Source of the DNA: a virus
Length of the DNA: 64,000 bases
IMG/VR virus record: IMGVR_UViG_3300012202_000039
Location: 1-64,000 of that record
Strand: one strand, 5' to 3'
The position numbers and the translations under genes are program-made. Below the pieces are notes generated by a model. It had not been told where the DNA came from, did not search any database, and worked only from the letters and a program-made list of their open reading frames with translations. Below, piece by piece: positions 13,514-42,333 of the stretch (positions within the stretch are counted from its first letter, which is position 1; each line of letters opens with the position of its first letter).

Positions 13514-15637
13514 ATGAAAACCAAGTCAATTTATAATAAGCCAGAAGTTGATTCCTTATTAAATTTTATGGACAAGGTAGAAGATAATTCTAATACTCCT
13601 AAAAATCAAATAACCTCGTATACTAACCGTGATATAAGAAAGACCATACAACGGGCTATTAATTCTCATGCTCCAATAGCTACAAATCTTAAGATAGATG
13701 ATAAAGATTTCAAACAAGCAGATAATTTCTATAATTTTACTACTATGAAGAAATATGCTCTGACCGACCCACCTTTCGCGATGCAGATGCATATGGTTAT
13801 TCAGGCTTTAGGTGAGTGGAACCCCCTTAAGTCTGACACTAAGTGGTTAAATACTAAATTACAGGCTGATACCCCTTTAGATGAATATCGCGATCACATA
13901 TGTTTATTAAAACAAGGTATATGTCCGAAGACTAAAGTAACCAAATCTGAATTAATTAAACAAAAGATACTTAACCCTTATAGCCAACTAATTGCGTGCT
14001 GGGGTCAGCGCAGCGGCAAGAGCTTAACTATCGCGCAAATTCTAGCATACATGGCTCATGGCCATCTAAAATTACAAAATCCTTCAGAAGTATTTGGCGT
14101 AGCTACGCATGCCTCCCTATTATCTTATTCTTTAGTATCTCTAACTTTTAAACAAGCATTAGAGAACCTTTATCATCCGTTTTATCAAATCGTAGGTGCA
14201 TCAGATTGGTTTCAGAATTATTTCCAAATGTTGGATGAGTACAGCCGTAAACAATCCGTTGAATTATATAAATTCAATGATACATTCTTGTCTTTTCGCT
14301 CACATAATATGATTGTAGCTGTATCTGGGCCAGACAAAAGAATATTACGCGGACGTGCCCGCCCCTTCTTTGCTATAGATGAGGCAGATTGGTTATTTTC
14401 ATCCAATAAGTCTGCTTCAGTAAAATATAACGTTGAGGAGATTTATGCGGCTTTACGGAATAGTATGATGGATATAGTAAGAGGGTGGAAAAATCTTCTA
14501 AATGATGGGTATAATTCTATAGTACCTCCGATGGCGTGTAATATATCTTCACCTTCGTCTAAGTTTGCTTTTATGATACCTATGATTGAGAAATCTAAAC
14601 ATTCTAGGAATATCTTTACTAGTCATCTATCTACACCAGAAGTTAATCCGAAGTTTACCTACGAAGACCTATATGAAGAAATTGTACCTCTACAAGGTGA
14701 AGAAGCATTTTTAAGAGATTTTATGGCGGTGCCGCCGTTATCATCATCTCCTTTTATTAGTGACATACAGAACTTTAAACTAGTAGTTAATCCCAACCGA
14801 GTTAATGGAGTTACGATTAACCAGAAGCAGATGATAGGTAAATCAGATAAATTATTCTCTGTTGGTGGATTCCAAATTGTTGCCGTAGATAATAAAGTAC
14901 CTAAGTTAATGTCGATAGACGCGGGTGAAGTTGACAATAGTTTCGCTTTTACAATCTCTCACAATGAAAAAGTAGATGGTAAATTTAAGCCTATATTTGA
15001 CGTAATGGGGGAAATTATCCCTTCTAAAGAAGCACCAATAAATTTTACGCTAGTAACTGAGCATATATTAATGCCGTTAATTAAGAAGTTTAATGTCAAA
15101 TTTTGCGTATGTGATAGATGGAATAGCATAAAGTTACTCTCTGATTTAGCCCAAGACTGTGATATAGATACCGAAGTATATAGCGTTAAGTATAGAGATT
15201 TCGTATCTTTCCGTGAAGGTATTTATAACGGTAAGTTAGAGCTACCTCGTCCAGAGTTAAAACCTAAGAAAATTTTAACATCTGGCGACGAGGGTTACCC
15301 GTACGGCTTTAAACAATACCCGATATCGCATTTTATCTTCCAATGTCTTACCGTACAAGATCAAGCGGGTAAAGCGGTAACTAAGGGTAAAAATGTTACT
15401 GATGATCTCTTCCGTGCCGCAGTTTTAGCCCATTCTTTTCTCGTTGATGTAGAATACCAAGAGTTATTCGAGGGCACCTCAGCTAATAAAGGTAGTCCCG
15501 GTTTAGCTATTATGGGTAGTTTATCAGGTTTCGGCAGTTATAATCCAGGACAATCTTCAAATATGGGGGTAGTGGGTACTTTATCAGGTACAGGACAATC
15601 TATGGGAACATCTTCCCGTGTTTTTGCACGTAAATAA
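13514..15637 (+). CDS. terL: Terminase large subunit
   Basis: Walker A WGQRSGKS, LRG, Walker B FAIDE, SSP motif, RNase H-like nuclease SIDAG...DRWNS...DDLFRA. Confidence 0.9.
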   Translation: MKTKSIYNKPEVDSLLNFMDKVEDNSNTPKNQITSYTNRDIRKTIQRAINSHAPIATNLKIDDKDFKQADNFYNFTTMKKYALTDPPFAMQMHMVIQALGEWNPLKSDTKWLNTKLQADTPLDEYRDHICLLKQGICPKTKVTKSELIKQKILNPYSQLIACWGQRSGKSLTIAQILAYMAHGHLKLQNPSEVFGVATHASLLSYSLVSLTFKQALENLYHPFYQIVGASDWFQNYFQMLDEYSRKQSVELYKFNDTFLSFRSHNMIVAVSGPDKRILRGRARPFFAIDEADWLFSSNKSASVKYNVEEIYAALRNSMMDIVRGWKNLLNDGYNSIVPPMACNISSPSSKFAFMIPMIEKSKHSRNIFTSHLSTPEVNPKFTYEDLYEEIVPLQGEEAFLRDFMAVPPLSSSPFISDIQNFKLVVNPNRVNGVTINQKQMIGKSDKLFSVGGFQIVAVDNKVPKLMSIDAGEVDNSFAFTISHNEKVDGKFKPIFDVMGEIIPSKEAPINFTLVTEHILMPLIKKFNVKFCVCDRWNSIKLLSDLAQDCDIDTEVYSVKYRDFVSFREGIYNGKLELPRPELKPKKILTSGDEGYPYGFKQYPISHFIFQCLTVQDQAGKAVTKGKNVTDDLFRAAVLAHSFLVDVEYQELFEGTSANKGSPGLAIMGSLSGFGSYNPGQSSNMGVVGTLSGTGQSMGTSSRVFARK

Positions 15638-17019: not shown

Positions 17020-20000
17020 ATGCATATTTTGATTAAAGGATTTGGTCGAACTGGTGTAGTTTCTTCTAAAGTCGGCGGTAGGTCTTTTACAGAAACCGCG
17101 ACGGATGGAGGAAATCTTAGTGGATTTGGTATCGGAGGTAATTACGGTTTAGGTGCATCAGCTATTATTCCTAACACCGATCTAGAGTTACTAGACGGTC
17201 TAATCTCGTTTAGAAGTGACCAAATTGTTCGGAAAGTATACCGGGATATCTATTGGCACGACGTTATTGCTGGTGGTGCCGTCGATATTCAATCTACTAT
17301 CCCTTTCTCAGATTTTAGCCTATCTGGTATCAACGATCCTAAAGTTCTCGAAGTCTACATGCAAGCTATTGAAAATATGTCTATCTTGACGTTGTTACCT
17401 TCAGTTAGGATCGACCAACTCGTCTTAGGCACATTTATCGGGGTAACTAACTTCGATAGAGAGATTAATAATTATACTTCATTAACTCCGATTAACATAG
17501 ATATGACGCAAATAACCCCGGCTCCATTGTTTGATATGGATCCCATTATTGATTTGCGTTTTGCTAAGGATACTCAGCGGTACCTGAGGAATACTAAAGA
17601 TCATAGGTACCAGCGTATCCGGAATAAAATGCCCCAATGGATGATCGATGGTATTTCCAAAGGACGCGTATTATTAGATTCAGCTAACGTCATCTACTTA
17701 CCTCGGAAGACTTTATCCACAAATAATCTCGGTACTTCCTATTTCCGTAGGATTTTACCGATACATATTATGGAAAAAGCTATATTACGAGGAAGCATAC
17801 AACAGGCATATAGAAGGCAACGAGCTATCGGATGGGCGCGAGTCGGCGACGATGAATGGGAGCCTACAAACAACGAACTAAGTTCTATTTTGAGTATGCT
17901 ACAATGTTTGACGGGTGACACACTTATATCTATAGAAAATAAACTTACACGTTTAGATAAGATTTGTTCGCGTAAAGGTATGCAAAAAGATGAAGGTAAG
18001 AAAATAAATCTAAAGATAAAAGGCAAAGATGGTAAAATAGTTACTGCTAATAAGTGGTGGTATCGCGGTTACGATTATGTTAATAACATTAAGACTGAGC
18101 ACGGATACTCATTAAAAGCCACAGATACTCATCGTATACTGGTACTTAATGACAAATTAAAATTAATCTGGAAATATACTAAAGATTTAAAGATCGGTGA
18201 CAAACTTTGTTTAGATAGTAACATATCTAAAAGTGAAAATAATACCCAATTAAAGGTAGATATTAATCTACCTACATTAGTTACTCGCCCGCAAAGTGGC
18301 GGTATGACAGCTAAAGCTATAGATATTCCTAAAGAAATGTACCCAAAATTAGCTTATTTATTAGGATTATTAGTTAGTGAGGGGCATGTCCATAAGCATT
18401 ATGTAGCTATAACTAATAGTGCAGAAATTTTGCTCGAAGAAGCTATAGATTGTTTTAAAGAAATCTTCTATCTTAATCCTAGAATTGAGTGGATGGATAG
18501 AATAGGACAAGAAATAGTTATAAATGGTGTGCATACGGGTACTACTAGAAGTCTATCTGGTGTAGTACGTGCCCATAGCATATATGCCTCTCATATATTA
18601 CAGAAGCTAGGCGTTAGCTCCAGTGAAACTCTTAGATTAAATGGTGATAAATATCCAGCAAATTATAAAGAAATTCCTTGGTCTATTCTTCAAGCTGATG
18701 ATGAATCTAAATATGCCTTTATTGCAGCATATTTAGATGGTGATGGCGGTCTCGAAGTACATGATACCAATTCGGGTAAAAATATACTTCTTATTATACG
18801 TAGTTTTAGTAAGAAATTACTAAAACAAATGCAGATAATGTTATTAGATCTAGGTTATCATTCTCATATATCCTATGATCTTAATAGGTTAACTATAAAT
18901 CGAAATAATGCGGCTAAATTATATGCTAAAATATCAAAGTATCTCAAGCACCCAGATAGAATTATTAAAGATTGTTCTGGTCAGGCTAACGATATGGGTG
19001 AAGGTATTCCCGTAGCCCCTATTCGGAAGTTATTTCAATCTAGATTCATCCGCTCAGAATATAGAAAACACTTTTTCTTAAATGATGAAGGTAAAGAAAT
19101 CAGTATTAAACATTATGGAGTATTTTTAGCTAAAACTTTAAGTCATAATACTCTTCGTACTGAAGCATATAATAGAGATGAATATAAAAATATATTAGAT
19201 GCTTTAAAAATTATTAGTAAGAAATTTTATAATACAGTTGTAGATTTACTAGGCGTTGGATATAGGTATGAATCTATTACCTCTATTACTAAACTAGCTA
19301 AAAAGCAACATTTATATGATTTAACTATTGATAAAAAATCAGAGTCGGCTTTTGTCGCTAATGGTATAGTTGTTCACAATTCTGCTGATATGGACCCTAT
19401 CGGCGCTTTTCTCGTAACTAGAAATGGTATTGATTATCAAGATATACGAGAAGGTGGACAGTTTTGGTCCTTCAATGATGTCTTCGATACCTTTTCTAAC
19501 GCTAAAATGCGCGGGCTTGGAATTTCAGAGGGATTATTATCCCAAGAAAATACGTATTCAACACTCGAAGCATCCATAAGTATGTTCATGGATCAAATAA
19601 AAAGTGATCGAGAACAGACAACGAGAGAAATGTTCACTAACCGTATATTCGCAAATATCGCTATTACTAACGATTTTAAACGTAAAAATCCACGGATGGA
19701 AGTACCTAACGACGCTGAACAATACCCAACTTTAAGTTCTATGACGACTAAAGGTAGTCCTAGGGGAGTACACCGCACTGAAGATGGCCGTTACTTCGCT
19801 GTTTGTAGTTCAGCTAGTGCTAGATCGCAACTAAGTGAATATCAGATACCCAGTGTTCATTGGCACAAACAGCTCGAACCTAAAGGTGATCGGGATTACG
19901 TTGATTTACTATCTACTCTAGAAGAAAAAGGTGTACCTGTTCCTCTGCGGGTGTACGCCGCATCCGTGGGTGTAGATTTAGATGCTATTGTTCAAGGTAT

Positions 20001-20367
20001 GGATAACGACAAGAAACTCCGTAAAGAATTTGCTAAGTTTAAACAAGAAACTGGTGGTGGCGGTGATGAAGAAGAACAAGGTGGTGGACAAGGTCAGCAA
20101 TTCGCTTCGGATCTGAGTAAAAGTGTGGGTAGTAGCGTAGCTCGTGTTGGTTTAGGTAATAGAACAACGGATGATCCCCGCTACAAGATTAGAGGTTCTA
20201 ATAATAAGGGTACACCGCAGGAACTTTCACGTAAAGGTGAAAAACTAGCTAACGAACGTATGCACAAGTTAGTAGCTAATATCCTAGCCGAGCGGCAACG
20301 TCAGGAAATCGTCAAGGAAAATAGCAAATTTAACAAACTTAAGGGTTTAAGGAAACCAAATAAATAG
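17020..20367 (+). CDS. Portal protein, intein-containing (623 aa after splicing)
   Basis: Lies between terminase and prohead protease; portal-like GTSYFRRILP, LGISEGLLS and PSVHWHKQL blocks; internal intein. Confidence 0.75.
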   Translation: MHILIKGFGRTGVVSSKVGGRSFTETATDGGNLSGFGIGGNYGLGASAIIPNTDLELLDGLISFRSDQIVRKVYRDIYWHDVIAGGAVDIQSTIPFSDFSLSGINDPKVLEVYMQAIENMSILTLLPSVRIDQLVLGTFIGVTNFDREINNYTSLTPINIDMTQITPAPLFDMDPIIDLRFAKDTQRYLRNTKDHRYQRIRNKMPQWMIDGISKGRVLLDSANVIYLPRKTLSTNNLGTSYFRRILPIHIMEKAILRGSIQQAYRRQRAIGWARVGDDEWEPTNNELSSILSMLQCLTGDTLISIENKLTRLDKICSRKGMQKDEGKKINLKIKGKDGKIVTANKWWYRGYDYVNNIKTEHGYSLKATDTHRILVLNDKLKLIWKYTKDLKIGDKLCLDSNISKSENNTQLKVDINLPTLVTRPQSGGMTAKAIDIPKEMYPKLAYLLGLLVSEGHVHKHYVAITNSAEILLEEAIDCFKEIFYLNPRIEWMDRIGQEIVINGVHTGTTRSLSGVVRAHSIYASHILQKLGVSSSETLRLNGDKYPANYKEIPWSILQADDESKYAFIAAYLDGDGGLEVHDTNSGKNILLIIRSFSKKLLKQMQIMLLDLGYHSHISYDLNRLTINRNNAAKLYAKISKYLKHPDRIIKDCSGQANDMGEGIPVAPIRKLFQSRFIRSEYRKHFFLNDEGKEISIKHYGVFLAKTLSHNTLRTEAYNRDEYKNILDALKIISKKFYNTVVDLLGVGYRYESITSITKLAKKQHLYDLTIDKKSESAFVANGIVVHNSADMDPIGAFLVTRNGIDYQDIREGGQFWSFNDVFDTFSNAKMRGLGISEGLLSQENTYSTLEASISMFMDQIKSDREQTTREMFTNRIFANIAITNDFKRKNPRMEVPNDAEQYPTLSSMTTKGSPRGVHRTEDGRYFAVCSSASARSQLSEYQIPSVHWHKQLEPKGDRDYVDLLSTLEEKGVPVPLRVYAASVGVDLDAIVQGMDNDKKLRKEFAKFKQETGGGGDEEEQGGGQGQQFASDLSKSVGSSVARVGLGNRTTDDPRYKIRGSNNKGTPQELSRKGEKLANERMHKLVANILAERQRQEIVKENSKFNKLKGLRKPNK
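17905..19380 (+). mobile_element. Intein with LAGLIDADG homing endonuclease (492 aa)
   Basis: Q/CLTGDT block A, ATDTHR block B, LAYLLGLLVSEG and FIAAYLDGDG, LYDLT..FVANGIVVHN/S C-terminus. Confidence 0.95.
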
Positions 20368-23192: not shown

Positions 23193-23957
23193 ATGAATAA
23201 CCGTCCTTTTCATATCTATTCTGATTGTCTCGGCTCACTAAAACATGTAGAAGCCTTTGATTTACTAGATGAAAAACGTTCGGATAAGCTGGAGTTATTT
23301 AAGATTCAAGCTGCCGCTACGGATATGACTAAAGATATTAAAGAAACTATTGTAACTGCACCTAAGATTCTCCCCTTCGCTGCGGAGAAATACAATATTT
23401 CACCTAATATTAAAGATTATATTCTCTGTTGCGTAGTAGTTTTACCTTCAGATCTACCCAATAAAAATGGTATTGCTTTTTCTCATGCTGAGCTTAGTTC
23501 GTTCGTTGTGGATGCTGGATCACTATGTTATGATACGTTTAGATATCGTCCGATTCACCTCGAACATGCCAATAAGGACCCTAGCATAGCTAAAGGCATA
23601 ATTTTAAGCTCTAGTTACAAAAGAATGACAGGATTTAAAGGTAATTTGTGGAAAGTTATCTGTCTCTGTGCGGTTGACCGTAATCGCGATAAAGTTTTAG
23701 CCGATCGTGTTCTTAATGAAAAAGATACCGGTTTTTCCTTAGGTAGTCTATGTGCCGATTACCGTTGTTCTATTACTGGTAACCTTTTTAGTTCAGGACA
23801 AGCTGAGAATTATACTAAGTTAGGTAAACCTTCTTTCCAAGTTGTGGGGAATAATTTAGCTTTCTTAAATGCCATAGATTCCTTAATGTTTGAAGTTAGT
23901 GTAGTAGCTTCTGAGGCTTATTCTTCTGCTCGAACACCATATAAGATGACCTTCTAG
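23193..23957 (+). CDS. Prohead (capsid maturation) protease
   Basis: PNKNG..F, PIHLEH (His), KGII, FSLG (Ser), FEVSVV: herpes/HK97-type protease pattern. Confidence 0.8.
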   Translation: MNNRPFHIYSDCLGSLKHVEAFDLLDEKRSDKLELFKIQAAATDMTKDIKETIVTAPKILPFAAEKYNISPNIKDYILCCVVVLPSDLPNKNGIAFSHAELSSFVVDAGSLCYDTFRYRPIHLEHANKDPSIAKGIILSSSYKRMTGFKGNLWKVICLCAVDRNRDKVLADRVLNEKDTGFSLGSLCADYRCSITGNLFSSGQAENYTKLGKPSFQVVGNNLAFLNAIDSLMFEVSVVASEAYSSARTPYKMTF

Positions 23958-24073: not shown

Positions 24074-24823
24074 ATGCAACTAACTAAAGAGGTAATCTTA
24101 GCTAGGATAGATATTTCTTACCACGATAAGGCTGAAGCTATATATAAAATAATTAAACAAGAAGTGCTTAAGGGAAAGTTAATAAAACAAAGTAACACAG
24201 CTTTGAGTAAACATCTAGATTCTACAACTATTTATTTATTAAATTCTGAACGATTTAATGAACTATATAAGAATACGACTATATCTTTCTCTACCTATAA
24301 AACTAGTTCATATTTTAACGAAAATAAGCACGCCTCTGGTTTTACGGATCAGAAAGGTAGTATAAAGCTGTTATATACATTTAGAATTTATACTTCCAAA
24401 TTTAAAAATGATCTCCATTTCTTAGTTCCACGGTTGAATAAGCAAGAAATTATATCTTTCTTTACTTATGATTTGTATAAAGATATATTTATTCATGAGT
24501 TAACGCACTACCTTCAGATACATAAACGTTTATATTTTGAATCTCCCTTTAAGAATGCTGATAATGATTACTTTAAACAAAGAATAGAACGAGAAGCATA
24601 CTTGAATAGTTTTATTGGAGATTTAAAGAATATCATTATAAAAAATCCAGAAAAATATCTACAGTCATTAAACGATTTTAAAAATTTAATAAAATATGAA
24701 TTAAGAAATGGCGGTAATGCTAAAGATATATTAGATAACCTATCCAATACTACGAGAGAGCAATATTATATAGATGTATACGAATATTTCAGGAAGAAAT
24801 ATAAGCAAGGACTAAATACATGA
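24074..24823 (+). CDS. Zincin-like metallopeptidase (paralogue 2)
   Basis: HELTH plus EREA; first 21 aa identical to 20865..21689. Confidence 0.65.
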   Translation: MQLTKEVILARIDISYHDKAEAIYKIIKQEVLKGKLIKQSNTALSKHLDSTTIYLLNSERFNELYKNTTISFSTYKTSSYFNENKHASGFTDQKGSIKLLYTFRIYTSKFKNDLHFLVPRLNKQEIISFFTYDLYKDIFIHELTHYLQIHKRLYFESPFKNADNDYFKQRIEREAYLNSFIGDLKNIIIKNPEKYLQSLNDFKNLIKYELRNGGNAKDILDNLSNTTREQYYIDVYEYFRKKYKQGLNT

Positions 24824-24993: not shown

Positions 24994-24996
24994 GCC

Positions 24997-25004
24997 CTGT
25001 AAAT
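24997..25004 (+). promoter_or_regulatory. Candidate phage promoter element CTGTAAAT
   Basis: Same element at 38655 and 62493, with variants at 3356, 3410, 11558 and 15651, all intergenic. Confidence 0.45.
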
Positions 25005-25063
25005 AGAACACAGAATACCACTAATGGTACTCTAGTTTTTAAATAAATTGAAGGTAAATAGTT

Positions 25064-25873
25064 ATGTCAGTTAATATTGTTCAAAATAAGTTTCTTGAAT
25101 ATATCGTCAGCGAATGTCACGATCGTGGTAATTTAATCGAGATGAATATTCATCTCGTAAATAATGTACGTTTAGTTGGACATATTATTGGTTACGATGA
25201 CGATTCCATCATTCTTAATGGTCGTGGTAAAACGCAGATTGTCTTCAAGAAGGCTATTTTGACTATTTGTCCTGGCGACAAGGGTGACGTAAACATGCTT
25301 AAGGCATGTTTACCTGATACGCTTAGTGAAGCTGCGCTTAATAGGTTAGTAGGTAATACTAGTACATATAGGCACTACACTTCTTCAAATTTAGATAAAA
25401 CTAGCCACCAACCTTATTACGGTGAGCCCCAGACAGATTTAAATCCAGTAAAAGAACCTATTGATATAATCAAACAAGTTGAAGGTAAGGTCGGCGAGGG
25501 TAGTTGTAGTGGGATCGGCGGTGAGGTTAATAACCAGCTAATTCCTAGTTATGATGCTATCCTGAACTACCATAAGAATAAAGGTAATTCTGTTTCAGAA
25601 GAAGATAAGGTCAGTGATAATGCCGAGGAATCTCGGGCTCCTACTGAGAGAGAAGAATTTAATAAGTATCTAAAAGAGAAGTATTCTAGTTCAGATGATA
25701 AGGGACGTAAAGAACTTTTAGAACAATTAAAGCTAAAAAATAACATTGGCGCATGTTTTAGTGATCCTGATGATGATATGTATTATCCTAGTAATATGAG
25801 TAATCTTCTTTCAGAAGAAGAGAAGATTACTCAAGAAATGCACGATAATGGTACTGACAGTGTTGCAGTTTAA
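25064..25873 (+). CDS. hfq: Hfq-like Sm protein with ~200-aa acidic C-terminal extension
   Basis: VQNKFL...IHLVNNVRLVGHIIGYDDDSIIL...TQIVFKKAILTICP aligns with Hfq LQDPFL...[23 protein letters not shown]...SQMVYKHAISTVVP. Confidence 0.85.
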   Translation: MSVNIVQNKFLEYIVSECHDRGNLIEMNIHLVNNVRLVGHIIGYDDDSIILNGRGKTQIVFKKAILTICPGDKGDVNMLKACLPDTLSEAALNRLVGNTSTYRHYTSSNLDKTSHQPYYGEPQTDLNPVKEPIDIIKQVEGKVGEGSCSGIGGEVNNQLIPSYDAILNYHKNKGNSVSEEDKVSDNAEESRAPTEREEFNKYLKEKYSSSDDKGRKELLEQLKLKNNIGACFSDPDDDMYYPSNMSNLLSEEEKITQEMHDNGTDSVAV

Positions 25874-25899
25874 TTAAGTTCAAAGAGGAAATAATTAAG

Positions 25900-27027
25900 A
25901 TGTCTACGATTGATTTCCCCGAGTTAGATATTGAAACCTATATCTCTGCTGACCCTATCGACGTAGTACCAGATAATAGCAAGGGTTCACAGAAGATTGC
26001 TATTCTAGGCTTAGGTCAAGCCGGCGGACGTATAGCAGAAGCTTTCCAAGACATTGGGTATAATAAAACTATTTATGTTAATACTACCGCACAAGATATT
26101 AATAATATTGTCTATAAATGTATTATTGGTATTACTGGTCGACCAGGCGGTGCTGGTAAGAATATGGCTATTGCTAGGGAAGCCTTTAATCAATGTGAAT
26201 CAACTATTACTAACTTGATGACTAAAGTGTACGGTAAAGTTGATCATATTCTAGTATGTGCTGCGTTAGGCGGAGGTACTGGCTGCGGTTCCGTGGTTTC
26301 TGCTTTAGAATTAGCTAAGAAGTATATGCGTTATATCGGACACGCCGATGCAGATAAGCGAGTTGGGGCGGTTATTACTATCCCAACTAATGGTGAACTT
26401 AACCCGCAAGTATTAAGTAATACTCTAGAAACCGCCGAAGAATTATCTAGGTTAGCAGATAATCAAGAAATCAGCCCTTTGATTATGGTGGATAACGAGA
26501 AGCTTAAGCTTCTCTATCAGACTAAAATTCCTATTGCGAAGTACCACACAACTATTAATAATCTTATTGTCCAGCTTATTGATAGTTTTAATACTATTTC
26601 TAACCAAGCTAGTGAATACATCACCTTCGACGCCACAGATTATGAAACCATCCTACAATGTGGCGGTCATATGATTTCCGGGGTAACTCGGGTAGATAAT
26701 TGGTTAGATAAAGATCTAGTAGTTAAAGCATTTCGAGATAATTTGATGGGTGCATTATTATCCTCTGATTTCGACCTAACTACGGCTACTCACGGCGGTG
26801 TAGTAGTAATGGTTGACGAGGAGTTGATTAATACTGATGTAAATCTTCAAGCTTTTATTGAAGCTGGATTTGATTCGATTAATCTCCTATGTCCTAAGGC
26901 CACTATTCATCGTGGTTTATACAAATGTAAGCCGACTAAGTTGAGTAAAGTTCGCGTATATACCACACTAGCTGGATTAAAGACACCTACTCGTAAATAT
27001 GATAAGTTATCTGCTTTATTGAACTAA
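25900..27027 (+). CDS. Tubulin/FtsZ-superfamily GTPase (PhuZ/TubZ/CetZ-like)
   Basis: GLGQAGGRIA, VNT, GAGKN, signature GGGTGCG, P..E, DNEKL, T7-loop FDATD. Confidence 0.92.
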   Translation: MSTIDFPELDIETYISADPIDVVPDNSKGSQKIAILGLGQAGGRIAEAFQDIGYNKTIYVNTTAQDINNIVYKCIIGITGRPGGAGKNMAIAREAFNQCESTITNLMTKVYGKVDHILVCAALGGGTGCGSVVSALELAKKYMRYIGHADADKRVGAVITIPTNGELNPQVLSNTLETAEELSRLADNQEISPLIMVDNEKLKLLYQTKIPIAKYHTTINNLIVQLIDSFNTISNQASEYITFDATDYETILQCGGHMISGVTRVDNWLDKDLVVKAFRDNLMGALLSSDFDLTTATHGGVVVMVDEELINTDVNLQAFIEAGFDSINLLCPKATIHRGLYKCKPTKLSKVRVYTTLAGLKTPTRKYDKLSALLN

Positions 27028-27040
27028 AGGAGTAACACAA

Positions 27041-27253
27041 ATGAACGAACCTAAGAAAATTTTACATATTACAGTTGGTTCTGATGATTGGTATTCTACT
27101 AATGTAGAATTGGAGCAAGTTTATAATTTATTTAAAAATGGTATATTAAATGCGCATAATTGTGTTACACAAAGAGGTATTGAAGTTAAGGCTATAGATA
27201 ATATTGAAGATATAGATGAAATTGTCATCAGGCGTAAGATGAAATTACCTTAA
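27041..27253 (+). CDS. Stand-alone homologue of a portal subdomain (70 aa)
   Basis: ILHITVGSDDWYSTNVEL...VTQRGIEVKAI aligns to spliced portal IGWARVGDDEWEPTNNEL...VTRNGIDYQDI. Confidence 0.65.
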   Translation: MNEPKKILHITVGSDDWYSTNVELEQVYNLFKNGILNAHNCVTQRGIEVKAIDNIEDIDEIVIRRKMKLP

Positions 27254-27285
27254 ATAATACACCAAAACTAGCCAATTCTATATGG

Positions 27286-27320
27286 AATAGCCCTAAGGTA
27301 TCACCTTAGGGCTATTTTTT
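27286..27320 (+). terminator. Intrinsic terminator closing the hfq-tubulin unit
   Basis: AATAGCCCTAAGGT-ATC-ACCTTAGGGCTATT plus T run. Confidence 0.9.
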
Positions 27321-27388
27321 CGTTTAAAGTTATCTAATTTATTAGATACTATTCAATAGTATCTAATTCTCTCCTAAAGGAATATAAA

Positions 27389-28309
27389 ATGTACCTAGGC
27401 CACGTAGTCAAAGCTGAAGCTATCCCTCAGTGGTTTTCTGATATGAATAAAGAAGGTCAACAAGGCTACTTAAAAGATCACCCTAACTCCAAGATTGCTC
27501 ATACAGTTAAGAATAATCCGAAAGCTTTGAAATCTGGTAGTAGGGGTGGAACTAATAAACCAGCTCCACACGATCCTAAGAAGACTCTAGATATTATCAA
27601 AAAGAATCCTAGGGTTCAGAAGGCGCTTAAACCAAATTCTCCAGAACGACAGGAATTAGCTGGTAATTTAAAGAAATATAAAAAATTAATGGATAAGACC
27701 TATAAAGGATTAGATTTAGAAACTAGAGATGCACTTAGGGCTACTTCTGCTAAACTAAAAGCTGGTAAGAAATTAGATGAAAAAGATATGCAAGGTATAG
27801 TAAATTTAACAAATGAATATACTAAGAAAAATAAATACGGATTAGGTAAGGCGGCAGCCAATGCAGTTGGTGCGGGTATTGGTGTTGCTGCTATGAACGT
27901 GGGCGGAGCGTTAACATTATATACTGGTGGTTTGGCAGGAACATTAGGAATTGGGGCAGCAGGTACAGCTGCCGCTATTGCCGCTCCTCTTGGTATTGGG
28001 CTGTTAGCAGTTGGCGCAGGTATATATGGGTATAATGCATTTAAGGGTATTAGAGGAAATTTTAGAAATTTACGAGGCAAAACTAAAATTAACGACAGAG
28101 AAACCCAAGAATTACTTAAACACAAGAATGAATTCAGTACTATTACAGCTTACTTCTACACTAAAGCAGAAGACAATACTCCCGATGATCCTATTCAAAC
28201 TATTCTAGATCACATGTCTAAGGCGGTGCAGACTACTAATCTCTCCCCAGAGATGTGGGCACAGATGTTAACTCCTATTAAAAGTGAAGCTAAAGAAAAA
28301 GAGGAATAG
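27389..28309 (+). CDS. Candidate internal head protein with Gly/Ala-rich hydrophobic hairpin (paralogue A)
   Basis: WFSDMNKEGQQGYLKDHPNSK motif; long GxxxG-rich segment. Confidence 0.55.
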   Translation: MYLGHVVKAEAIPQWFSDMNKEGQQGYLKDHPNSKIAHTVKNNPKALKSGSRGGTNKPAPHDPKKTLDIIKKNPRVQKALKPNSPERQELAGNLKKYKKLMDKTYKGLDLETRDALRATSAKLKAGKKLDEKDMQGIVNLTNEYTKKNKYGLGKAAANAVGAGIGVAAMNVGGALTLYTGGLAGTLGIGAAGTAAAIAAPLGIGLLAVGAGIYGYNAFKGIRGNFRNLRGKTKINDRETQELLKHKNEFSTITAYFYTKAEDNTPDDPIQTILDHMSKAVQTTNLSPEMWAQMLTPIKSEAKEKEE

Positions 28310-28311
28310 AG

Positions 28312-29160
28312 ATGTATTTTCCCTCTGAAAAAGAATATTTTAAAATAATGTCTAGTGTTGGCAAGCTAGACATTAATATAGATTTAAATGAAATATTATC
28401 TTCAGTAATACCTCTACATAATATCAGGTCTTATTACGAAGGTGCTAAAGCTTTACCTAAGTTCGACAAATCTAGTCTCAATAAGATATCACAGTCTGGA
28501 ACTAAGTCTATAAATAAAGCTAAAACTACATTAAAATCTAACGGCGTTAATATAACTTTACTTCAAAGCTTATGCTATAAGTATGGTAAAACCTATCGTG
28601 CCGGCTTTGATCCACAGAAATTCGCTCAACATATCAAAGAAATTCACACTAAAGTATCAGTTAAAGAGTTACCTAAAACTATACTATTATTACTAGTCAT
28701 GCTTATAGCCTCGTTATTATTTCAAATGATATTATTCTCAATTATAGTAACCGGTTTATCCGCTGTCGGTATATCTATAGCTGGAGGCTTTATATTTACA
28801 ATAGTTAACATCATTTACTTAGTTCTAGGGGCGCCTATATTTGAAGAAACTGCCAAAAAATACGCAAATGAACATGGATTTGGAAATACTTATGTAACAT
28901 TATTTACTTACGCCGAATTTGCTAAATACGTAATTACTTTTGCACATGCCGGCGTTGCCGTCCTAACTATTGTAGCTTATAGAATATTAGCAGCAGTTCT
29001 TCATTTTTATACACATTATTTACAAAAAGAAAATGTAGATTTTACGGGTAAGAAAAGTGATATTAAGAATGCAGGTTACAAAACAGGACTAGCAGTTCAC
29101 GGTCTTTGGAATTTTTGTTTAGGCGGCTTACCCATGGTACTACAACTTATTCTTAAATAA
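28312..29160 (+). CDS. PrsW/CPBP-type intramembrane glutamic protease
   Basis: TM helices with APIFEETAK (EExxK), FTYAE, AVLH and HGLWN motifs. Confidence 0.75.
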   Translation: MYFPSEKEYFKIMSSVGKLDINIDLNEILSSVIPLHNIRSYYEGAKALPKFDKSSLNKISQSGTKSINKAKTTLKSNGVNITLLQSLCYKYGKTYRAGFDPQKFAQHIKEIHTKVSVKELPKTILLLLVMLIASLLFQMILFSIIVTGLSAVGISIAGGFIFTIVNIIYLVLGAPIFEETAKKYANEHGFGNTYVTLFTYAEFAKYVITFAHAGVAVLTIVAYRILAAVLHFYTHYLQKENVDFTGKKSDIKNAGYKTGLAVHGLWNFCLGGLPMVLQLILK

Positions 29161-29177
29161 TATAGGAAGCTAGAGAA

Positions 29178-29894
29178 ATGCCAGATAAAAAAGCTTTACA
29201 AAAAATTATCGATGATCCCCGAACTAAAAAGGCTATGCAATCTAACTCTCCTGAAAGACAAGCTTTAGCTAAGACAATTCTCAAATATAGAAAACCCGTA
29301 CAGAAAGTTTATAAATCTCTCCTACCAGGAGAGAAATTACTTATGGATGCTATAGCTAATAAGTTACGTAAGAATGAGAAACTAGATAAGAATGATATTA
29401 AGGATTTATCTAGTTTCACTCAAAGATATACACAGGAGATCGATCCCGCTTCCTATAAAAACATGTATAAGTATGAACGAAATAGTAGTTTACAAGGAGG
29501 ATTATTAGCATTCGCTTTAATACCTTGGGCTGCTAAAGGTTTAGCAACTCAATTTAGTGGTCCTCTTGTTGGTCTCGCGGCAGGTGTTGTTTCTTTCCCA
29601 CCGGCCGTAATTTTTGGTACAGCAGCTTTAGCTGGTTTATCTTTAGGTATGGAAATATATAGTGCATATAAAGGTATTAAGAATTGGATTATGCGTATAA
29701 GAGGTACGGATAAAATTGATACAGATCAACTAAAAAGTGTATTAAAACATCAACCTTTAAGTCATGTACATGCTTACTATATATCAGCGGATAACGATAA
29801 TTCTGAAGCAACCGTCGATACAATTCTAAAAGCCACGGCTAAAGCAATTTTAACTGTTAAAATTAATCCAGAGGATCTTATGAAAGCTGCGTAA
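29178..29894 (+). CDS. Candidate internal head membrane protein (paralogue B)
   Basis: NSPERQALA and YSAYKGIK..RGTDKI shared with 27389; hydrophobic hairpin. Confidence 0.55.
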   Translation: MPDKKALQKIIDDPRTKKAMQSNSPERQALAKTILKYRKPVQKVYKSLLPGEKLLMDAIANKLRKNEKLDKNDIKDLSSFTQRYTQEIDPASYKNMYKYERNSSLQGGLLAFALIPWAAKGLATQFSGPLVGLAAGVVSFPPAVIFGTAALAGLSLGMEIYSAYKGIKNWIMRIRGTDKIDTDQLKSVLKHQPLSHVHAYYISADNDNSEATVDTILKATAKAILTVKINPEDLMKAA

Positions 29895-29895
29895 T

Positions 29896-30720
29896 ATGTT
29901 AATATTTGCTACTGAAGATAAAAATTCTTGGTTCTACGATATGAATAAAGATCAACAGGATTTGTATATCACTAGGCATCCTAACTCCAAATTCGCTAAA
30001 CAAGCGTCACCAGAACAAGGTGACGCTGATGCTTTTTCTACACATATTTTAGACGATAAAAAAGTACAGAAGGCTACACAGCCTCACTCCAAACAGCGTA
30101 AACAAGCCGCTAATAGTGTTACTAACCAAGGGAAATTAATCGAGGATTATTATAGTAAACTGCCTAAGACTGATAAGCTTAAGTTAGATAGTTTCACTAA
30201 AAAATTAAGTAATAAAGAAAAGATATCTAAAGTAGATTTTAAACCAGTTAAAACATTCTTTAATAAATATCAAAAGTGGGTTAAAGGTTTAGATAGCGAA
30301 AAAATTGGTAAACTAGCTATTAAGGGTGCGGCCGTTTTTGCTATTGGCTCTTTCGTGGCAGCTAATATACCTCTAGCTGCTTTAGCTGGAGTGGTATTTT
30401 TATCTAGTAAGTTTAAAGGACCGGAACCTAAATTTTTGGGTCCAGTTAGGCAGCCTAAAAAAGAAGCAGAAACTGAAGAATCTGCACCTAAGTATACTAA
30501 ATCCAAGCCTAATATAATCGATACTGAATACGAAGAAGTTCCTAACGATGAGTATCTTGATCATAAACAACCTAAGCAATTGCAACATATCACTAGCTAC
30601 TTTAATATAGCAGCAGTAGATAATACTCCACAAATTCTAGTTAAGCATTTAGCTGATGCACTTCAGTCACATAACTTTACCAAAGAACAGTGGCAATATT
30701 TATTACGGCACCAATCATGA
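29896..30720 (+). CDS. Candidate internal head membrane protein (paralogue C)
   Basis: WFYDMNKDQQDLYITRHPNSK shared with 27389; hydrophobic segment. Confidence 0.55.
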   Translation: MLIFATEDKNSWFYDMNKDQQDLYITRHPNSKFAKQASPEQGDADAFSTHILDDKKVQKATQPHSKQRKQAANSVTNQGKLIEDYYSKLPKTDKLKLDSFTKKLSNKEKISKVDFKPVKTFFNKYQKWVKGLDSEKIGKLAIKGAAVFAIGSFVAANIPLAALAGVVFLSSKFKGPEPKFLGPVRQPKKEAETEESAPKYTKSKPNIIDTEYEEVPNDEYLDHKQPKQLQHITSYFNIAAVDNTPQILVKHLADALQSHNFTKEQWQYLLRHQS

Positions 30721-37455: not shown

Positions 37456-38553
37456 ATGAAAGCAACTGTTGCTCGTCGCCCTGCTGTCCCAGCTTTACAT
37501 GCACGTTTTAATGGTAGTAATGAACGTATCGTCGGTCGAGACAATCATATTAATGCGGGTTCTAATAAGGAACTTCTAACCCGCATTAAAGATCTGGCGG
37601 AAATGGTCACCGCTGGTTCTATTGATATGTCGCCCTATAATAAGAATAATCAAGTTACTGCGGCTGACGTTCAAACTCGTAATCAAAAATTATCAGCAGC
37701 ATTTTATACCCAGAATAATTCCCGTCCGTGGGCAAATATGGGTGCCGCAGTTAGTGCCGATCTTTCGGAAGCCGCTGACCGTGAAGGCTTTATGCGTCGT
37801 CTCTTACTTAAGGTTGACGTAGCCAACGGAACTATTCCACGTATCCGCGTTAAGCAGAAGAATATTATCGCCTTAATCGCTTCTTCGGGGTTAGATAATC
37901 GGCCGGTATACTTACGTGATAAGTATATTACGCCTCCAGAATTTTATATTAAGCATAATATTCGCGTGGAAGAACGTGAAATTGTGCAGGGGTCTGGGGA
38001 TATTCTTGAAGATAAGTTCTTCGAGACCCAGGAAGGTATTATGGTGCAGGAAGATCGTAAGTTTATCTCTCTGCTAAATGATACTATTGGTATCGCTAAT
38101 AGTAATCAGCTTTTAGCGGGTGGTTTATCTCCTGCTACCTTATCACAGATGCGCACACAGATTCTACAGTGGAATCTGCCAGCATCTACTCTGTTAATTG
38201 CATCTGATGTGCTTAATGATATCGTTGGTCAGGGCGCAAATACTTTTGGCGGCTATTTTGATCCGGTGTCACAGTTTGAAATCGTTCAGACTGGTATGAT
38301 TGGTACCTTAATGGGTATGCAGGTTATCACGGATTCGTACCGTGCCCCAACTCTTAAGGTTCTTAATGCCGGTGATATCTGGGTACTTTCTAATCCAGAA
38401 ATGCTCGGTGCCTTTACGGATCGTGGTCCCGTGCAGTCACAGGAAGTTAATTCATACATGGAAGGTTCGCCCGCTCGTGGTTGGAACTTCTTTGAATTAC
38501 TGAGTATGACTATAACTAACCAACGGTCAGCCGTCCACGGAAGTCGAGTTTAA
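37456..38553 (+). CDS. Major capsid protein (HK97 fold)
   Basis: 365 aa; REGFMRRLL, QEDRKF, GMIGTLMGMQVIT (GxLxG), RGP and RGW motifs; position in head module. Confidence 0.8.
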   Translation: MKATVARRPAVPALHARFNGSNERIVGRDNHINAGSNKELLTRIKDLAEMVTAGSIDMSPYNKNNQVTAADVQTRNQKLSAAFYTQNNSRPWANMGAAVSADLSEAADREGFMRRLLLKVDVANGTIPRIRVKQKNIIALIASSGLDNRPVYLRDKYITPPEFYIKHNIRVEEREIVQGSGDILEDKFFETQEGIMVQEDRKFISLLNDTIGIANSNQLLAGGLSPATLSQMRTQILQWNLPASTLLIASDVLNDIVGQGANTFGGYFDPVSQFEIVQTGMIGTLMGMQVITDSYRAPTLKVLNAGDIWVLSNPEMLGAFTDRGPVQSQEVNSYMEGSPARGWNFFELLSMTITNQRSAVHGSRV

Positions 38554-38607: not shown

Positions 38608-38701
38608 CTAATTTAAGCGACATTATATTATATAACTCAAGATCTCTATTAAAACTGTAAATGAACAGAGATCTTGAGTTATAAATGTCGGCTTAAGTTA
38701 G
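38608..38701 (+). promoter_or_regulatory. Long inverted repeat upstream of the endonuclease gene
   Basis: Perfect 17-bp arms TATAACTCAAGATCTCT (38631-47) / AGAGATCTTGAGTTATA (38667-83) with imperfect outer arms; CTGTAAAT in the loop. Confidence 0.75.
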
Positions 38702-38712
38702 GAGAGTTTAAA

Positions 38713-40026
38713 TTGGAACGTTCAGAACAATATTATGATAGTTTAAAGAACGAACATATTAGAAAATTTAACGAAACACATGGTAAGGGTGAATATAAAT
38801 TCTTATCTAAGATTTATCGTAAACAATTAGACACATATAAATATAAGCATAAATGTGGGCTAATTTTTGAATCTACGGCTATGAGCCTACAACATGGCAG
38901 ATCTAAGTGTGTTTGCCAACATAAAATAAATATTCCGAATACACCTGAAGGGTTTAAAATTAGATCTGCTGCTTCAAATAAAGGCCAAGCTGGACGTTAT
39001 AAAACCTATCGTAAGAAAATGCAAGTAATATTAAACGAAAAGTACGGTGAAAATGAATATAAACTTTTAACTAAGAAATATGAGGGTGGAACTAAAACTT
39101 ATACCTTTAAGCATTCTTGTGGATTAAAATTTAAATCTACTGCTGCTTGTTTATCTAGAGGTTTATCTAAGTGTCCTTGTTTACACATTGTAAGAAGTAA
39201 AGGACTTACTCTAGAAGAACATAATATAGATTTACAAGCTAAAAAAGGTAACGATTATACTTGTACTAAATATTTTAGTATGCATGATCCAAATAATGAA
39301 TATATACACAATATATGTGATAATGCTTTTAAATCCCGTGCAGCAGCTGTTCTAGGTGATTTAAAAGGTTGTATCCATTGCTCGGGTAAAGACGGTAGTT
39401 TAATTAATAGAGTGACTAAACGTCAATTTATGAAAGAATTAAATAGTGTTGAAAATGGAAGAGATTACCGAATTATCGGAGATTTTGAGGGTAAGTCTAA
39501 AATAACAGAGTTTAAACATAATTGTGGTAATAAATTTAAAGCTAAGCCTTATGATGTATTAATGAATCGTATTAGATGTTATACATGTTATCCTATATTA
39601 AGTAATAAAGAAGTAGAAGTAAATAATAAAATTTTTACTTTACGTGGATATGAACCTTTCGCTTTAGAACGATTATTAAAGCTTTACAGTTATAAAGATA
39701 TTCTTGATTCTAAGTCAAAAGAGTTTCCTCATTTTAAATACACAATAAATAGGATACGCCGAAATTATATTCCAGATCTTTATGTTAAATCTAATAATCT
39801 AGTAATTGAGGTTAAGAGTTTATCAACTATGGGTTTAGAAAATTCATATTTTAATGATAAAGATGGTATCGATTTATTTGATAGAAATAGCGCCAAAGCA
39901 AAAGCAGTACTAAGAAAGGGTTACAAATTTAGGATGTACTTATTCGATAGTAAAGGTGTACGGATAACACTACCAAAATACTGGTATACGTTATCTAAAA
40001 CAGATGTGTTAGATTATATTTCTTAA
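38713..40026 (+). CDS. Free-standing (homing-type) endonuclease: Zn-finger repeats plus PD-(D/E)XK domain
   Basis: Four HxC..F...CxC/CxxC repeats; GYEPFAL and YIPDLY...IEVKS; TTG 38713 follows a GGAG RBS. Confidence 0.75.
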   Translation: MERSEQYYDSLKNEHIRKFNETHGKGEYKFLSKIYRKQLDTYKYKHKCGLIFESTAMSLQHGRSKCVCQHKINIPNTPEGFKIRSAASNKGQAGRYKTYRKKMQVILNEKYGENEYKLLTKKYEGGTKTYTFKHSCGLKFKSTAACLSRGLSKCPCLHIVRSKGLTLEEHNIDLQAKKGNDYTCTKYFSMHDPNNEYIHNICDNAFKSRAAAVLGDLKGCIHCSGKDGSLINRVTKRQFMKELNSVENGRDYRIIGDFEGKSKITEFKHNCGNKFKAKPYDVLMNRIRCYTCYPILSNKEVEVNNKIFTLRGYEPFALERLLKLYSYKDILDSKSKEFPHFKYTINRIRRNYIPDLYVKSNNLVIEVKSLSTMGLENSYFNDKDGIDLFDRNSAKAKAVLRKGYKFRMYLFDSKGVRITLPKYWYTLSKTDVLDYIS

Positions 40027-40074: not shown

Positions 40075-40908
40075 ATGAAATCGCTTAACGCTAAGAATTT
40101 AGAAATACTGCAAAGGTGCAGTAAGCAAATCGCTAGTATGCTTAAAGAAAATCATATTGTTATCTCTAGTAACGAAGTATTAGATGATATTCTGAATATG
40201 GTTCTCAGTAAGGCTAATGGTGGTAAATCTACAGTTACGGCAGCTACAGCACCAACTACGTTACCACAACATAATCCTGCTGCTGATATTCTTTGTTTAG
40301 CCTTTGCACATTTTCAAGAGGGTGAATTAGAGACTTCACTTAAATATGTATCCGCAGCTTTTGAAGCCGAAGGTATCGAAGAACTCGTGCAAGCTATGGA
40401 ATCGATGAATAATGAAGTTGAAGAGGCATCATTTAATAAGGATGCTGATAGTTTAGCTCAACTAAATCCATTTAATGGTAATATGAGTCTAGTTGATTTA
40501 GATATTGACGATATGGTTGATGAAGCTGACCTCGATTATCAAAGCACTAATGTTCCGGTAGATCATTCCCAGACGGATGAAATAAATACAGATTACCTTG
40601 ATGACGAAGACGAAGACGAAGACGAAGACGACGATGATCCTAGTGTAACTATCGAAGTTAAATCTAGTGATCTTGGCGTCGTTACTAGTCAGGATGATGA
40701 TAACGAGTTACAAGATGAGAATGAAGACGAAGAACCGCGTGATGATAATATGGACTTCGATGACGAAGAAGATAATTTAAATAGTGATGATGATTTCGAA
40801 GATGAGGATGAAGTTAAAGCCAATATTATTCTAGCAAATAATATGTCTCTATATGGTGATACTATTAGTCGAAATAAAGCCAGTAGACTATTAAATAAAC
40901 GTGGTTAA
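40075..40908 (+). CDS. Acidic head-associated protein
   Basis: D/E-rich C-terminal half; downstream of the MCP. Confidence 0.55.
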   Translation: MKSLNAKNLEILQRCSKQIASMLKENHIVISSNEVLDDILNMVLSKANGGKSTVTAATAPTTLPQHNPAADILCLAFAHFQEGELETSLKYVSAAFEAEGIEELVQAMESMNNEVEEASFNKDADSLAQLNPFNGNMSLVDLDIDDMVDEADLDYQSTNVPVDHSQTDEINTDYLDDEDEDEDEDDDDPSVTIEVKSSDLGVVTSQDDDNELQDENEDEEPRDDNMDFDDEEDNLNSDDDFEDEDEVKANIILANNMSLYGDTISRNKASRLLNKRG

Positions 40909-40936
40909 TTATTTCTTGGTCTTACTACTAGTTGGT

Positions 40937-40976
40937 AAAAGGGAGACTACTGATTTGCTCAGTAGTCTCCCTTTTT
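40937..40976 (+). terminator. Intrinsic terminator
   Basis: AAAAGGGAGACTACTGA-TTTGC-TCAGTAGTCTCCCTTTT. Confidence 0.9.
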
Positions 40977-41000
40977 CTTAATAAAAATTGGGTTATTAAT

Positions 41001-41654
41001 ATGCAGGTAGAATCAAAAATATTTGAAGCTTCTTTAGAATATTTTATGAATATGTTGAAAGTTACCTTTAGTAAACCTAACTCCGAAAGGATAGAAGTAG
41101 TTAATACTCAGGGTCCTCAACAGATGCGTGAAATTGCACGTAGACTAGGCGGACAAGTTAAGTTTCCTTATATGGCTACTATGTTGGAATCTATACAAAA
41201 AGATCGTGAGAGTTACCCTGGTCGTAATATGAAACGTTTAACAGTTAATGGAGCGAAGAATTTAGATAATGGTACGGTATTAAAGTACCAACTTAAGCCA
41301 ATAGAAGCTAATATTACTACTAAATTTATCTGTCAAGATTATGCAGACGGTATAGATTTTTGTAAAAAACTTATATATTTAGATGAAACTTTTAACTTTG
41401 TATTAATGCAGGGTAATACTCGGATAAATATTCACGTTTTAACTGATGATGCCATACAATTCCCTGAAATACAACTAGATGATATTGATAGTATATTTCA
41501 GTTCGAAACTGTTATAAAAATAAAAACTTACATAGGTACTGTTGAACAATTTAAGTTAGTTAAAAATGTAACTGTTAATACCAATATTCCTTATAACGAT
41601 TATAGTGATTTTATAGTAGTTAGTAGTGAAAACTTTGCTCAAAATTCTTCATAG
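41001..41654 (+). CDS. Probable tail completion/terminator protein
   Basis: Upstream of the sheath; start moved to ATG 41001 because the upstream TTG frame runs through the terminator. Confidence 0.45.
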   Translation: MQVESKIFEASLEYFMNMLKVTFSKPNSERIEVVNTQGPQQMREIARRLGGQVKFPYMATMLESIQKDRESYPGRNMKRLTVNGAKNLDNGTVLKYQLKPIEANITTKFICQDYADGIDFCKKLIYLDETFNFVLMQGNTRINIHVLTDDAIQFPEIQLDDIDSIFQFETVIKIKTYIGTVEQFKLVKNVTVNTNIPYNDYSDFIVVSSENFAQNSS

Positions 41655-41663
41655 GAAAATCAG

Positions 41664-42038
41664 ATGGCTTTAGTTCCTGATACATTAACTTTCGATCACA
41701 TATTATATAAATCAGCTGCTAATGTTCGTGAAATACTTACTTCTTCTCGGGTATTCCTTTCCATATTTAATTGGACTAAAACTACGGTAGATATAGCAAA
41801 TAATACTTCATTTGCTATATCTACCGGTATAACGTTATTTATCGATATAAATTGTCGTAATCCAATGAAGTTAACTCTAGTATCTAATATACCTGGAACT
41901 AACACACCTCAGACCTATATAGTGCTGATTAATAACCGTTTCTTCTTTACTGGTGCTCTAACCTCTTTAACTCTCACTAATCCCAATCCTACATCGCCTA
42001 ATTTAGATCCAATACAGTGTAAAATTATATATGCCTAA
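41664..42038 (+). CDS. Hypothetical virion protein
   Basis: ORF track; tail module context. Confidence 0.55.
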   Translation: MALVPDTLTFDHILYKSAANVREILTSSRVFLSIFNWTKTTVDIANNTSFAISTGITLFIDINCRNPMKLTLVSNIPGTNTPQTYIVLINNRFFFTGALTSLTLTNPNPTSPNLDPIQCKIIYA

Positions 42039-42333
42039 GGAAATTGATATGATCGTACAAAATAAAACAGCTTTATCTATTGGTTTAGACTCGCATGATC
42101 GTGATCATGTACAGATTCCTCCACATTCTACTAAACAAGTTGATGATAAATTCTATTGGCAGTTTCCACCACATAAATTGAAGTTAATTAAACCCCCAGT
42201 CGGTGTAGAAGTTATTCTAGATGTAGATACTCCTACACCTATTAATGATAGTATTTCTGTTGAAGTTATTAATCCTCCTATTTTAGTTCAAGAAATTTCA
42301 TCTAATTTCGTCACTACAAAATCTAACTTATAA
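42031..42333 (+). CDS. Hypothetical protein
   Basis: ORF track. Confidence 0.55.
   Translation: MPKEIDMIVQNKTALSIGLDSHDRDHVQIPPHSTKQVDDKFYWQFPPHKLKLIKPPVGVEVILDVDTPTPINDSISVEVINPPILVQEISSNFVTTKSNL

Follow-up and report, generated by a model that had tools for sequence, protein, structure and literature searches.

Three adjacent genes for an Hfq-like protein, a tubulin-family GTPase and a free-standing portal segment in the head operon of an uncultured jumbo phage are probably separate acquisitions

A viral DNA stretch of 64,000 nucleotides (nt; IMG/VR virus record IMGVR_UViG_3300012202_000039, positions 1 to 64,000, hereafter called the window) carries, among its head genes, three adjacent genes for an Hfq-like protein, a GTPase of the tubulin family and p70, a protein of 70 amino acids (aa) that is homologous to a segment of the phage portal. 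This locus raises the question of whether the three genes form one functional system or have merely come to lie side by side. An earlier interpretation of the same DNA, made from its letters alone (the sequence-only reading), had regarded them as a new cytoskeletal module. We consider it more probable, at roughly 0.6, that these are accessory genes, each acquired independently of the other two and now located at the distal end of a late head operon, and that they do not constitute a conserved system of three parts; the phage would then have gained separately a TubZ-like filament former, a remodelled Hfq ring and a minimal clip-like protein. This reading is founded on the independent distributions of the three genes, on the finding that a single strong terminator follows them while none convincing was detected upstream, and on their G+C content, which matches that of the window. 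The structures of the genes, the identities of their domains and their occurrence among phages are observations; the activities ascribed to the proteins, and when they are expressed, are predictions.

The distribution of the genes was evaluated from both sides. Genes were called in 239 related tubulin loci, and all neighbours located at most four genes from the tubulin were compared with the proteins of the window. None of these neighbours was related to the Hfq-like protein or p70, nor to p249 and p57, two further window proteins. Moreover, the Hfq family PF17209 was absent from eight larger tubulin-bearing viral contigs, three of which are complete. The second comparison set comprised 23 jumbo phages whose portals belong to the family of the window portal, and 17 of their genomes are at least 90% complete. 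This tubulin was present in none of them (0/23), and an Hfq above the cut-off was detected in one (1/23), where the protein is 70 aa long and encoded about 100 kb from the portal. The p70-like domains occurred in six (6/23), all of them devoid of tubulin, and were located far from the portal. From these comparisons we regard the three distributions as independent. The sequence-only reading had itself named a lack of co-occurrence in related phages among the findings that would refute it, and as far as these data reach such a lack was observed. What surrounds the tubulin varies by clade: membrane proteins, proteins with an HExxH motif or, in Planctomycetota, housekeeping genes. In the closest accessible kin (L083 and L084, 49-50% identity) the flanking genes encode HExxH proteins, small membrane proteins and a secreted protein of 249-278 aa without a Pfam match, and in bacterial metagenome-assembled genomes (MAGs) the tubulin is found among housekeeping genes, often beside a paralogue. 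A predicted complex of the Hfq-like protein, p70 and the tubulin scored a median of 0.00 with one run at 0.52, which carries no weight either way.

Several points weigh against separate acquisition. The tight spacing and the shared orientation of the genes fit functional coupling, and their order (a nucleic-acid-binding protein, a tubulin, a small protein) echoes that of tubR-tubZ-tubY. Furthermore, the co-occurrence counts leave out the nearest kin of the tubulin (P0002-P0015, on contigs of up to 138 kb) as well as a 185-kb contig on which proteins identical to those of the window are also encoded. Finally, the Hfq-like protein and p70 are very divergent, and the comparison may have overlooked weakly similar relatives next to other tubulins.

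The gene structure itself agrees with the sequence-only reading in most respects. All three genes are transcribed from the + strand, with gaps of 26 and 13 nt between them and a purine-rich ribosome-binding site before each, and their G+C content equals that of the rest of the window. Since the genes for the prohead protease and the major head protein flank them, they are located inside the head module, after the protease, as had been proposed. The strong terminator at the 3' end was confirmed as well: the element at 27284-27318 consists of a 16-bp stem followed by a U run, and was matched by none of 200 shuffles (0/200). The proposed 5' boundary did not hold. The motif CTGTAAAT, which had been described as recurring, is not enriched in the window (3 occurrences versus 4.6 expected) and its three contexts do not align, and the fold of the upstream gap at 24994-25063 is not significant (z -0.4). 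Thus, one end of the bounded transcription unit stands and the other does not. On the + strand between 12 and 27 kb no other convincing terminator besides that at 27284-27318 was detected, which implies that the unit may begin far upstream and that its self-containment is not established. The three genes may be the last cistrons of a long late head-gene transcript, a timing of expression that we infer. The coordinates of these and other features are collected in Table 1.

Table 1. Features of the window, with positions counted from its first letter.
Feature	Position	Strand	Basis or remark
Large terminase (TerL)	13514-15637		
Portal gene	17020..20367	+	phrog_16240, E 4.5e-116; paralogue from which the p70 fold would derive
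Portal intein with LAGLIDADG domain, aa 297-787	17908-19380	+	Pfam Intein_splicing, LAGLIDADG_3
Prohead protease	23193-23957		phrog_18299, E 1.6e-52
70-nt gap upstream of the Hfq-like gene, with the CTGTAAAT word	24994..25063	+	neither promoter nor terminator established
Hfq-like protein, 269 aa	25064..25873	+	Pfam PF17209 (Hfq)
Sm/Hfq domain, about aa 1-75	25064-25288	+	Pfam match aa 21-72 = nt 25124-25279
Acidic tail, aa 76-269 (194 aa), isoelectric point 4.7	within 25064..25873	+	composition
Tubulin/FtsZ-superfamily GTPase, TubZ/RepX-like, 375 aa	25900..27027	+	PF00091
Tubulin T1 loop, G37-G43	26008-26028	+	alignment
Tubulin T4 signature, G122-G130 (GGGTG)	26263-26289	+	alignment
Tubulin T7 aspartates, D244 and D247	26629-26640	+	alignment
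p70, 70 aa, free-standing homologue of portal segment	27041..27253	+	homologous aa 5-55 = nt 27053-27205
Intrinsic terminator, end of transcription unit	27284..27325	+	dG -23.2 kcal/mol, z -4.9
Major head protein	37456-38553		
Candidate neck genes	40075-42333		ahead of sheath gene

The product of the middle gene is an intact tubulin-family GTPase, as had been recognised from its sequence. It belongs to the superfamily by its match to PF00091 (41.2 bits against a cut-off of 33, aa 32-203), and the T1 (GxGQxGG-like), T4 (GGGTGxG) and T7 motifs are all present. The more specific Pfam families Tubulin_2 (26 bits) and TubZ-like_C (PF22453; 17 bits, cut-off 26) stayed below their cut-offs; close relatives pass both, P0012 reaching 27.8 bits for PF22453. 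We collected 27 homologues at 36-51% identity, and across 26 homologues the residues G37, G39, Q40, G42 and G43, the stretch G122-G130 and the aspartates D244 and D247 are invariant or nearly so. The T7-loop acidic residues of tubulins and FtsZ complete the active site of the neighbouring subunit. The conservation of the nucleotide loops together with the T7 aspartates suggests that the window tubulin is very probably an assembly-activated GTPase, and it would polymerise with GTP into filaments by which phage DNA or capsids are positioned within the cell. Members of the family also share an N-terminal extension that is acidic and conserved, and their C-terminus is short and basic.

When the family profile was compared with solved structures, the best match was RepX (4ei7, E 3.8e-24), followed by archaeal FtsZ, CetZ and TubZ. 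The TubZ/RepX proteins (4ei7, 3m89, 2xka, 3v3t, 4xcq) share with the window protein the tubulin/FtsZ GTPase fold with its T1, T4 and T7 elements. However, the locus has neither the winged-helix TubR-like gene nor the centromere repeats of a TubZRC system, and the gene instead belongs to a jumbo-myovirus head operon. The tubulin PhuZ of the Chimalliviridae is likewise phage-encoded and found in jumbo phages, where it centres the replication compartment and delivers capsids (PMC7824862; in part general knowledge). Nevertheless, no PhuZ entry was present in the best 60 of the 65 solved matches to our family profile. The C-terminal tail of PhuZ is acidic, whereas the C-terminus of the window tubulin is basic. 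In addition, by its TerL and portal the phage of the window is of the PaBG, Lu11 and Erwinia type, and to our knowledge jumbo phages of these types do not form a phage nucleus. These comparisons cover 80 kb of an estimated 230 kb, and a chimallin gene could lie in the rest of the genome.

The tubulin family was detected on 152 viral contigs, about 200 metagenome contigs and 111 bacterial MAG contigs, nearly all of the latter from Planctomycetota or Omnitrophota. Against isolate phages, tblastn revealed only Bacillus phage G (26%), and single-protein scans of viral contigs with the tubulin, the Hfq-like protein or the N-extein of the portal found nothing. As far as we found, this TubZ-like family, common to many uncultured phages and to Planctomycetota chromosomes, is undescribed. 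In a FastTree tree the window tubulin is placed on a long branch, and the cellular clade is nested among phage clades. This chromosomal clade (about 40% identical; GTDB contigs L163-L241, e.g. L169, and L135:1597-3174) comprises Planctomycetota (Phycisphaerae, Pirellulales and Sedimentisphaerales) and Omnitrophota and has accD- and rpe-like neighbours; the chromosomal tubulins often have a tandem paralogue, whose tubulin domain carries an AAA+ lid and a Fis-type helix-turn-helix (HTH) as fusion partners. In the IMG/VR loci L005-L023, L038 and L041 the tubulin is always flanked by a protein of 104-109 aa with an N-terminal membrane helix. The same loci carry a flanking protein of 126 aa with a signal peptide and a C-terminal anchor, and the large terminase is encoded four genes downstream, which suggests a membrane-tethered filament system near packaging genes. 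The window also encodes a protein with an HExxH motif, p249 (24074-24823), two genes upstream of the Hfq-like gene; its similarity to the HExxH proteins of comparable length (270-295 aa) encoded directly upstream of the tubulin in L083:6232-7918 was not significant.

The first of the three proteins is an Sm/Hfq protein with a long acidic tail, and here the sequence-only reading was correct. The PF17209 score was 43.1 bits in the window and 46.1 bits in a search of its own genome, against a cut-off of 27, and the protein aligns with solved Hfq proteins, the best being Aquifex Hfq (5szd, E 1.9e-5). Among 1.8 billion representatives 29 relatives were found at E<=1e-3, all of them over the Sm core only. 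The tail (aa 76-269) had no relative in this set and no usable match in the structure atlas. A tblastn search of isolate phages with the protein gave no match. Phage-encoded Hfq is rare in isolate phages: a search with a related Hfq retrieved five records only, two of them Salmonella records. The protein is predicted to form an Sm ring with a tail that is acidic and probably disordered.

For a residue-level comparison we used the E. coli Hfq numbering and took Q8, F/Y42, K56 and H57 to form the uridine pocket and R16, R17 and R19 to form the rim. In common with bacterial Hfq, the alignment of aa 21-72 covers both the Sm1 and the Sm2 motif, and the equivalents of Q8 (Q7) and K56 (K62) are retained. 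The window protein differs in that F42 is replaced by Asp47 and H57 by Lys63, so that the proximal uridine pocket is not preserved. The arginine patch of the rim is missing, only one Arg being present in the rim stretch, six residues are inserted before strand 1, and the tail is without relatives. A basic residue is retained at the position that we take to correspond to K31. The ring would thus be a nucleic-acid-binding or assembly-assisting protein rather than a classical matchmaker of small RNAs. The 70-aa Hfq of the one related jumbo phage mentioned above is encoded on an IMG/VR contig of 190,918 bp (L332:1489-1698, - strand), far from the head genes; it is 44% identical to the Sm core of the window protein and likewise has no aromatic residue at the equivalent of position 42.

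The third protein, p70, had been described as a free copy of a portal subdomain, and several sequence comparisons between p70 and portals bear this homology out. Within the proteome of the window p70 matched the portal at E 0.005, 6.6 standard deviations above shuffled sequences and with 0/500 shuffles reaching this score. A hidden Markov model (HMM) was built from ten intein-free portals of other jumbo phages, the portal of the window being excluded. It gave p70 a score of 18.4 bits (E 3.5e-8 for one target and 6.6e-4 for 20,612 open reading frames), and the best of 2000 p70 shuffles reached 5.5 bits. In an hhalign comparison with 26 further portals p70 aligned at E 2.4e-5 to the same columns, corresponding to residues 278-329 of the PaBG portal, and when related jumbo phages were searched with p70, their portals were matched at the same place. 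The alignment spans the splice junction of the mature portal. The intein of the portal, which has Cys at residue 297, His-Asn at 786-787 and Ser at +1, is inserted within the most conserved portal segment, the very one that p70 resembles.

Portals were not the only matches of p70. In six genomes it matched non-portal open frames of about 127-480 aa (E 4.6e-7 to 1.5e-3), and five of these scored above any portal. The four p70-like open frames that were checked all belong to phrog_11049, a family of unknown function, and also match phrog_16240 at 289-340; members from PaBG-like jumbo phages are located at L334:1165-2001, L336:1240-1689 (-), L337:1345-1725 (-) and L338:1171-1755. The phrog_11049 proteins, in which the clip-like domain corresponds to the C-terminal half, appear to form a family, so far unstudied, of paralogues of this portal segment. 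In comparison with these relatives of 127-279 aa, p70 is a bare domain, and p70 itself did not reach E 0.01 against either phrog_11049 or phrog_16240. It may be regarded as a minimal representative of a family whose free-standing domains resemble the portal clip.

In a model of the portal family the segment 278-329 lies between helices 256-276 and 340-352 and has a predicted local distance difference test (pLDDT) value below 50, a low value of the kind to be anticipated where a part is packed between subunits. Among solved structures T4 gp20, with its clip at about residues 291-339, matches this model best; by sequence, neither the portal exteins nor the portal family profile had a solved relative. 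The position between two stem helices, together with the T4 gp20 numbering, suggests that the segment is probably the clip, an assignment that we infer from a model and not from a solved structure. For p70 itself the model is poor (pLDDT 70; of five models, only one exceeded 52), and fold searches with it retrieved no portal but only generic ubiquitin-like/beta-grasp or doublecortin folds, all with weak scores. As a predicted role, p70 would bind a partner of the portal clip (the terminase or the adaptor arms), or join the portal assembly, as a modulator.

How well do explanations that couple the genes survive? The one that survives best, although we still regard it as unlikely, pairs the Hfq-like protein with p70 at the portal vertex. 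According to it, the Hfq-like ring serves as a transient second gate and an assembly aid on the neck stopper, p70 regulates or chaperones docking at the clip, and the tubulin is unrelated or moves capsids. The idea derives from T4, for which a 2026 paper reports that the stopper gp14 is capped by a hexamer of host Hfq, which serves transiently as a second gate for the genome; host Hfq also stabilises the gp13/gp14 neck, and the neck is docked below the clip of the portal by adaptor arms that reach between the clip domains (PMC12929587). The corresponding portal-neck complexes with E. coli Hfq (9lu5 and 9lu6), in which the hexamer is a structural part of the neck intermediates, surfaced in both our fold and our sequence searches. 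With this precedent, a phage-encoded Hfq ring and a clip-like domain in one head operon suggest a role at the portal vertex. Both genes are situated between the protease and the major head protein, and candidate neck genes precede that for the sheath. The ring is remodelled in its proximal pocket and its rim, with a basic residue kept at the K31 position, and the portal segment to which p70 is homologous lies between the stem helices. The window gene thus shares with T4 the context of head and neck morphogenesis. It differs in being phage-encoded and not borrowed from the host, and its link to a neck protein is putative. Moreover, the Hfq-binding surface of gp14 is found only in T4-like phages (PMC12929587), whereas the window phage is PaBG-like. 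The only other clear Hfq in the portal lineage is encoded far from the head genes, and p70-like domains occur without any Hfq, the two genes not travelling together elsewhere.

The proposal of the sequence-only reading, that tubulin filaments are joined through the acidic tail of an Sm ring acting as a nucleic-acid or cargo adaptor and are coupled to packaging by p70, now appears improbable. It could draw on the adjacency, common strand, short gaps and common terminator of the genes, on a loose analogy with the tubR-tubZ-tubY gene order (general knowledge), and on two independent low-confidence beta-grasp models of p70. The nearest solved neighbour of these is a doublecortin domain, which is microtubule-binding (Foldseek E 0.02, VIA Z 5.3, atlas TM 0.63), values that are below the level expected beyond a common fold. 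However, none of the three possible gene pairs co-occurs in the 239 tubulin loci or in 31 larger related genomes (0/3), the p70 family occurs in phages without tubulin, and the tubulin family keeps changing its neighbours (membrane, HExxH or housekeeping genes). The absence of co-occurrence in related phages leaves the adaptor role of the ring and the linking role of the portal mimic unsupported.

A third possibility combines the preceding ones into a phage-owned kit, in which the acidic-tailed Hfq ring replaces the host Hfq gate, the free clip domain times the docking of terminase and adaptor, and a TubZ-like filament gathers capsids and DNA, all expressed from the end of the head operon; this we consider a speculative scenario with little chance of being right. 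That the locus is a TubZRC-type partition cassette of a plasmid-like pseudolysogen, with the Hfq-like protein replacing the centromere binder TubR, is highly improbable: the tubulin profile is indeed closest to the plasmid partition and replication tubulins RepX and TubZ, and Hfq binds DNA as well as RNA (PMC12929587), but there are no iterated centromere-like repeats, iterons or tandem repeats in or around the cassette and no winged-helix or HTH family match for its proteins, the genes sit inside the late structural operon of a myovirus, and Hfq is not linked to this tubulin family elsewhere. Separate acquisition of the three genes is therefore the reading that we retain.

The setting of the locus is that of a large phage. 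The source contig of IMG/VR is 79,973 bp long and about 35% complete according to CheckV, which implies a genome of more than 200 kb (estimated at about 230 kb), and the DNA was found only in two soil metagenome sequencing runs, which may be its source. The gene order of the window is that of a myovirus structural region, with the major head protein followed by the sheath, three tube paralogues, a tape-measure/lysin protein and baseplate genes. TerL and the portal resemble those of jumbo phages such as PaBG, Lu11, NCTB and the jumbo phages of Erwinia and Dickeya (28-39% identity), and blastn of the window against isolate phages gave no DNA match. The phage is most likely an uncultured soil jumbo myovirus whose TerL and portal are PaBG-like and not T4-like.

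Some neighbouring genes deserve mention. Downstream of the three genes, the region 27389-30720 encodes three basic proteins that are paralogues of one another (306, 238 and 274 aa) and have hydrophobic, Gly/Ala-rich centres; a gene for a multi-pass membrane protein (28312-29160) interrupts the series. No PHROG or Pfam match was obtained for any protein of this block, and the basic paralogues may serve in ejection or as internal proteins of the head. In the gap that separates the terminator from the first gene of the block, which starts at 27389, a perfect 13-nt inverted repeat with a 1-nt spacer (27341-27367) looks like an operator or promoter-associated site for the paralogues. In addition, an HNH endonuclease gene (38674-40026) is located directly 3' of the major head protein gene, and the three consecutive tail-tube paralogues after the sheath gene occupy 45101-47029.

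A three-part system made of an Hfq ring, a tubulin and a portal mimic would be striking if true, and the distribution data do not support it. The individual genes bear on the biology of jumbo phages in their own right. The role of host Hfq as a neck gate in T4 makes a phage-encoded gate directly testable, and the Hfq-like gene of this phage sits in the head operon. At the same time, p70 indicates that a segment of the portal, probably the clip, is maintained in jumbo phages as free-standing copies, which could regulate packaging or neck attachment.

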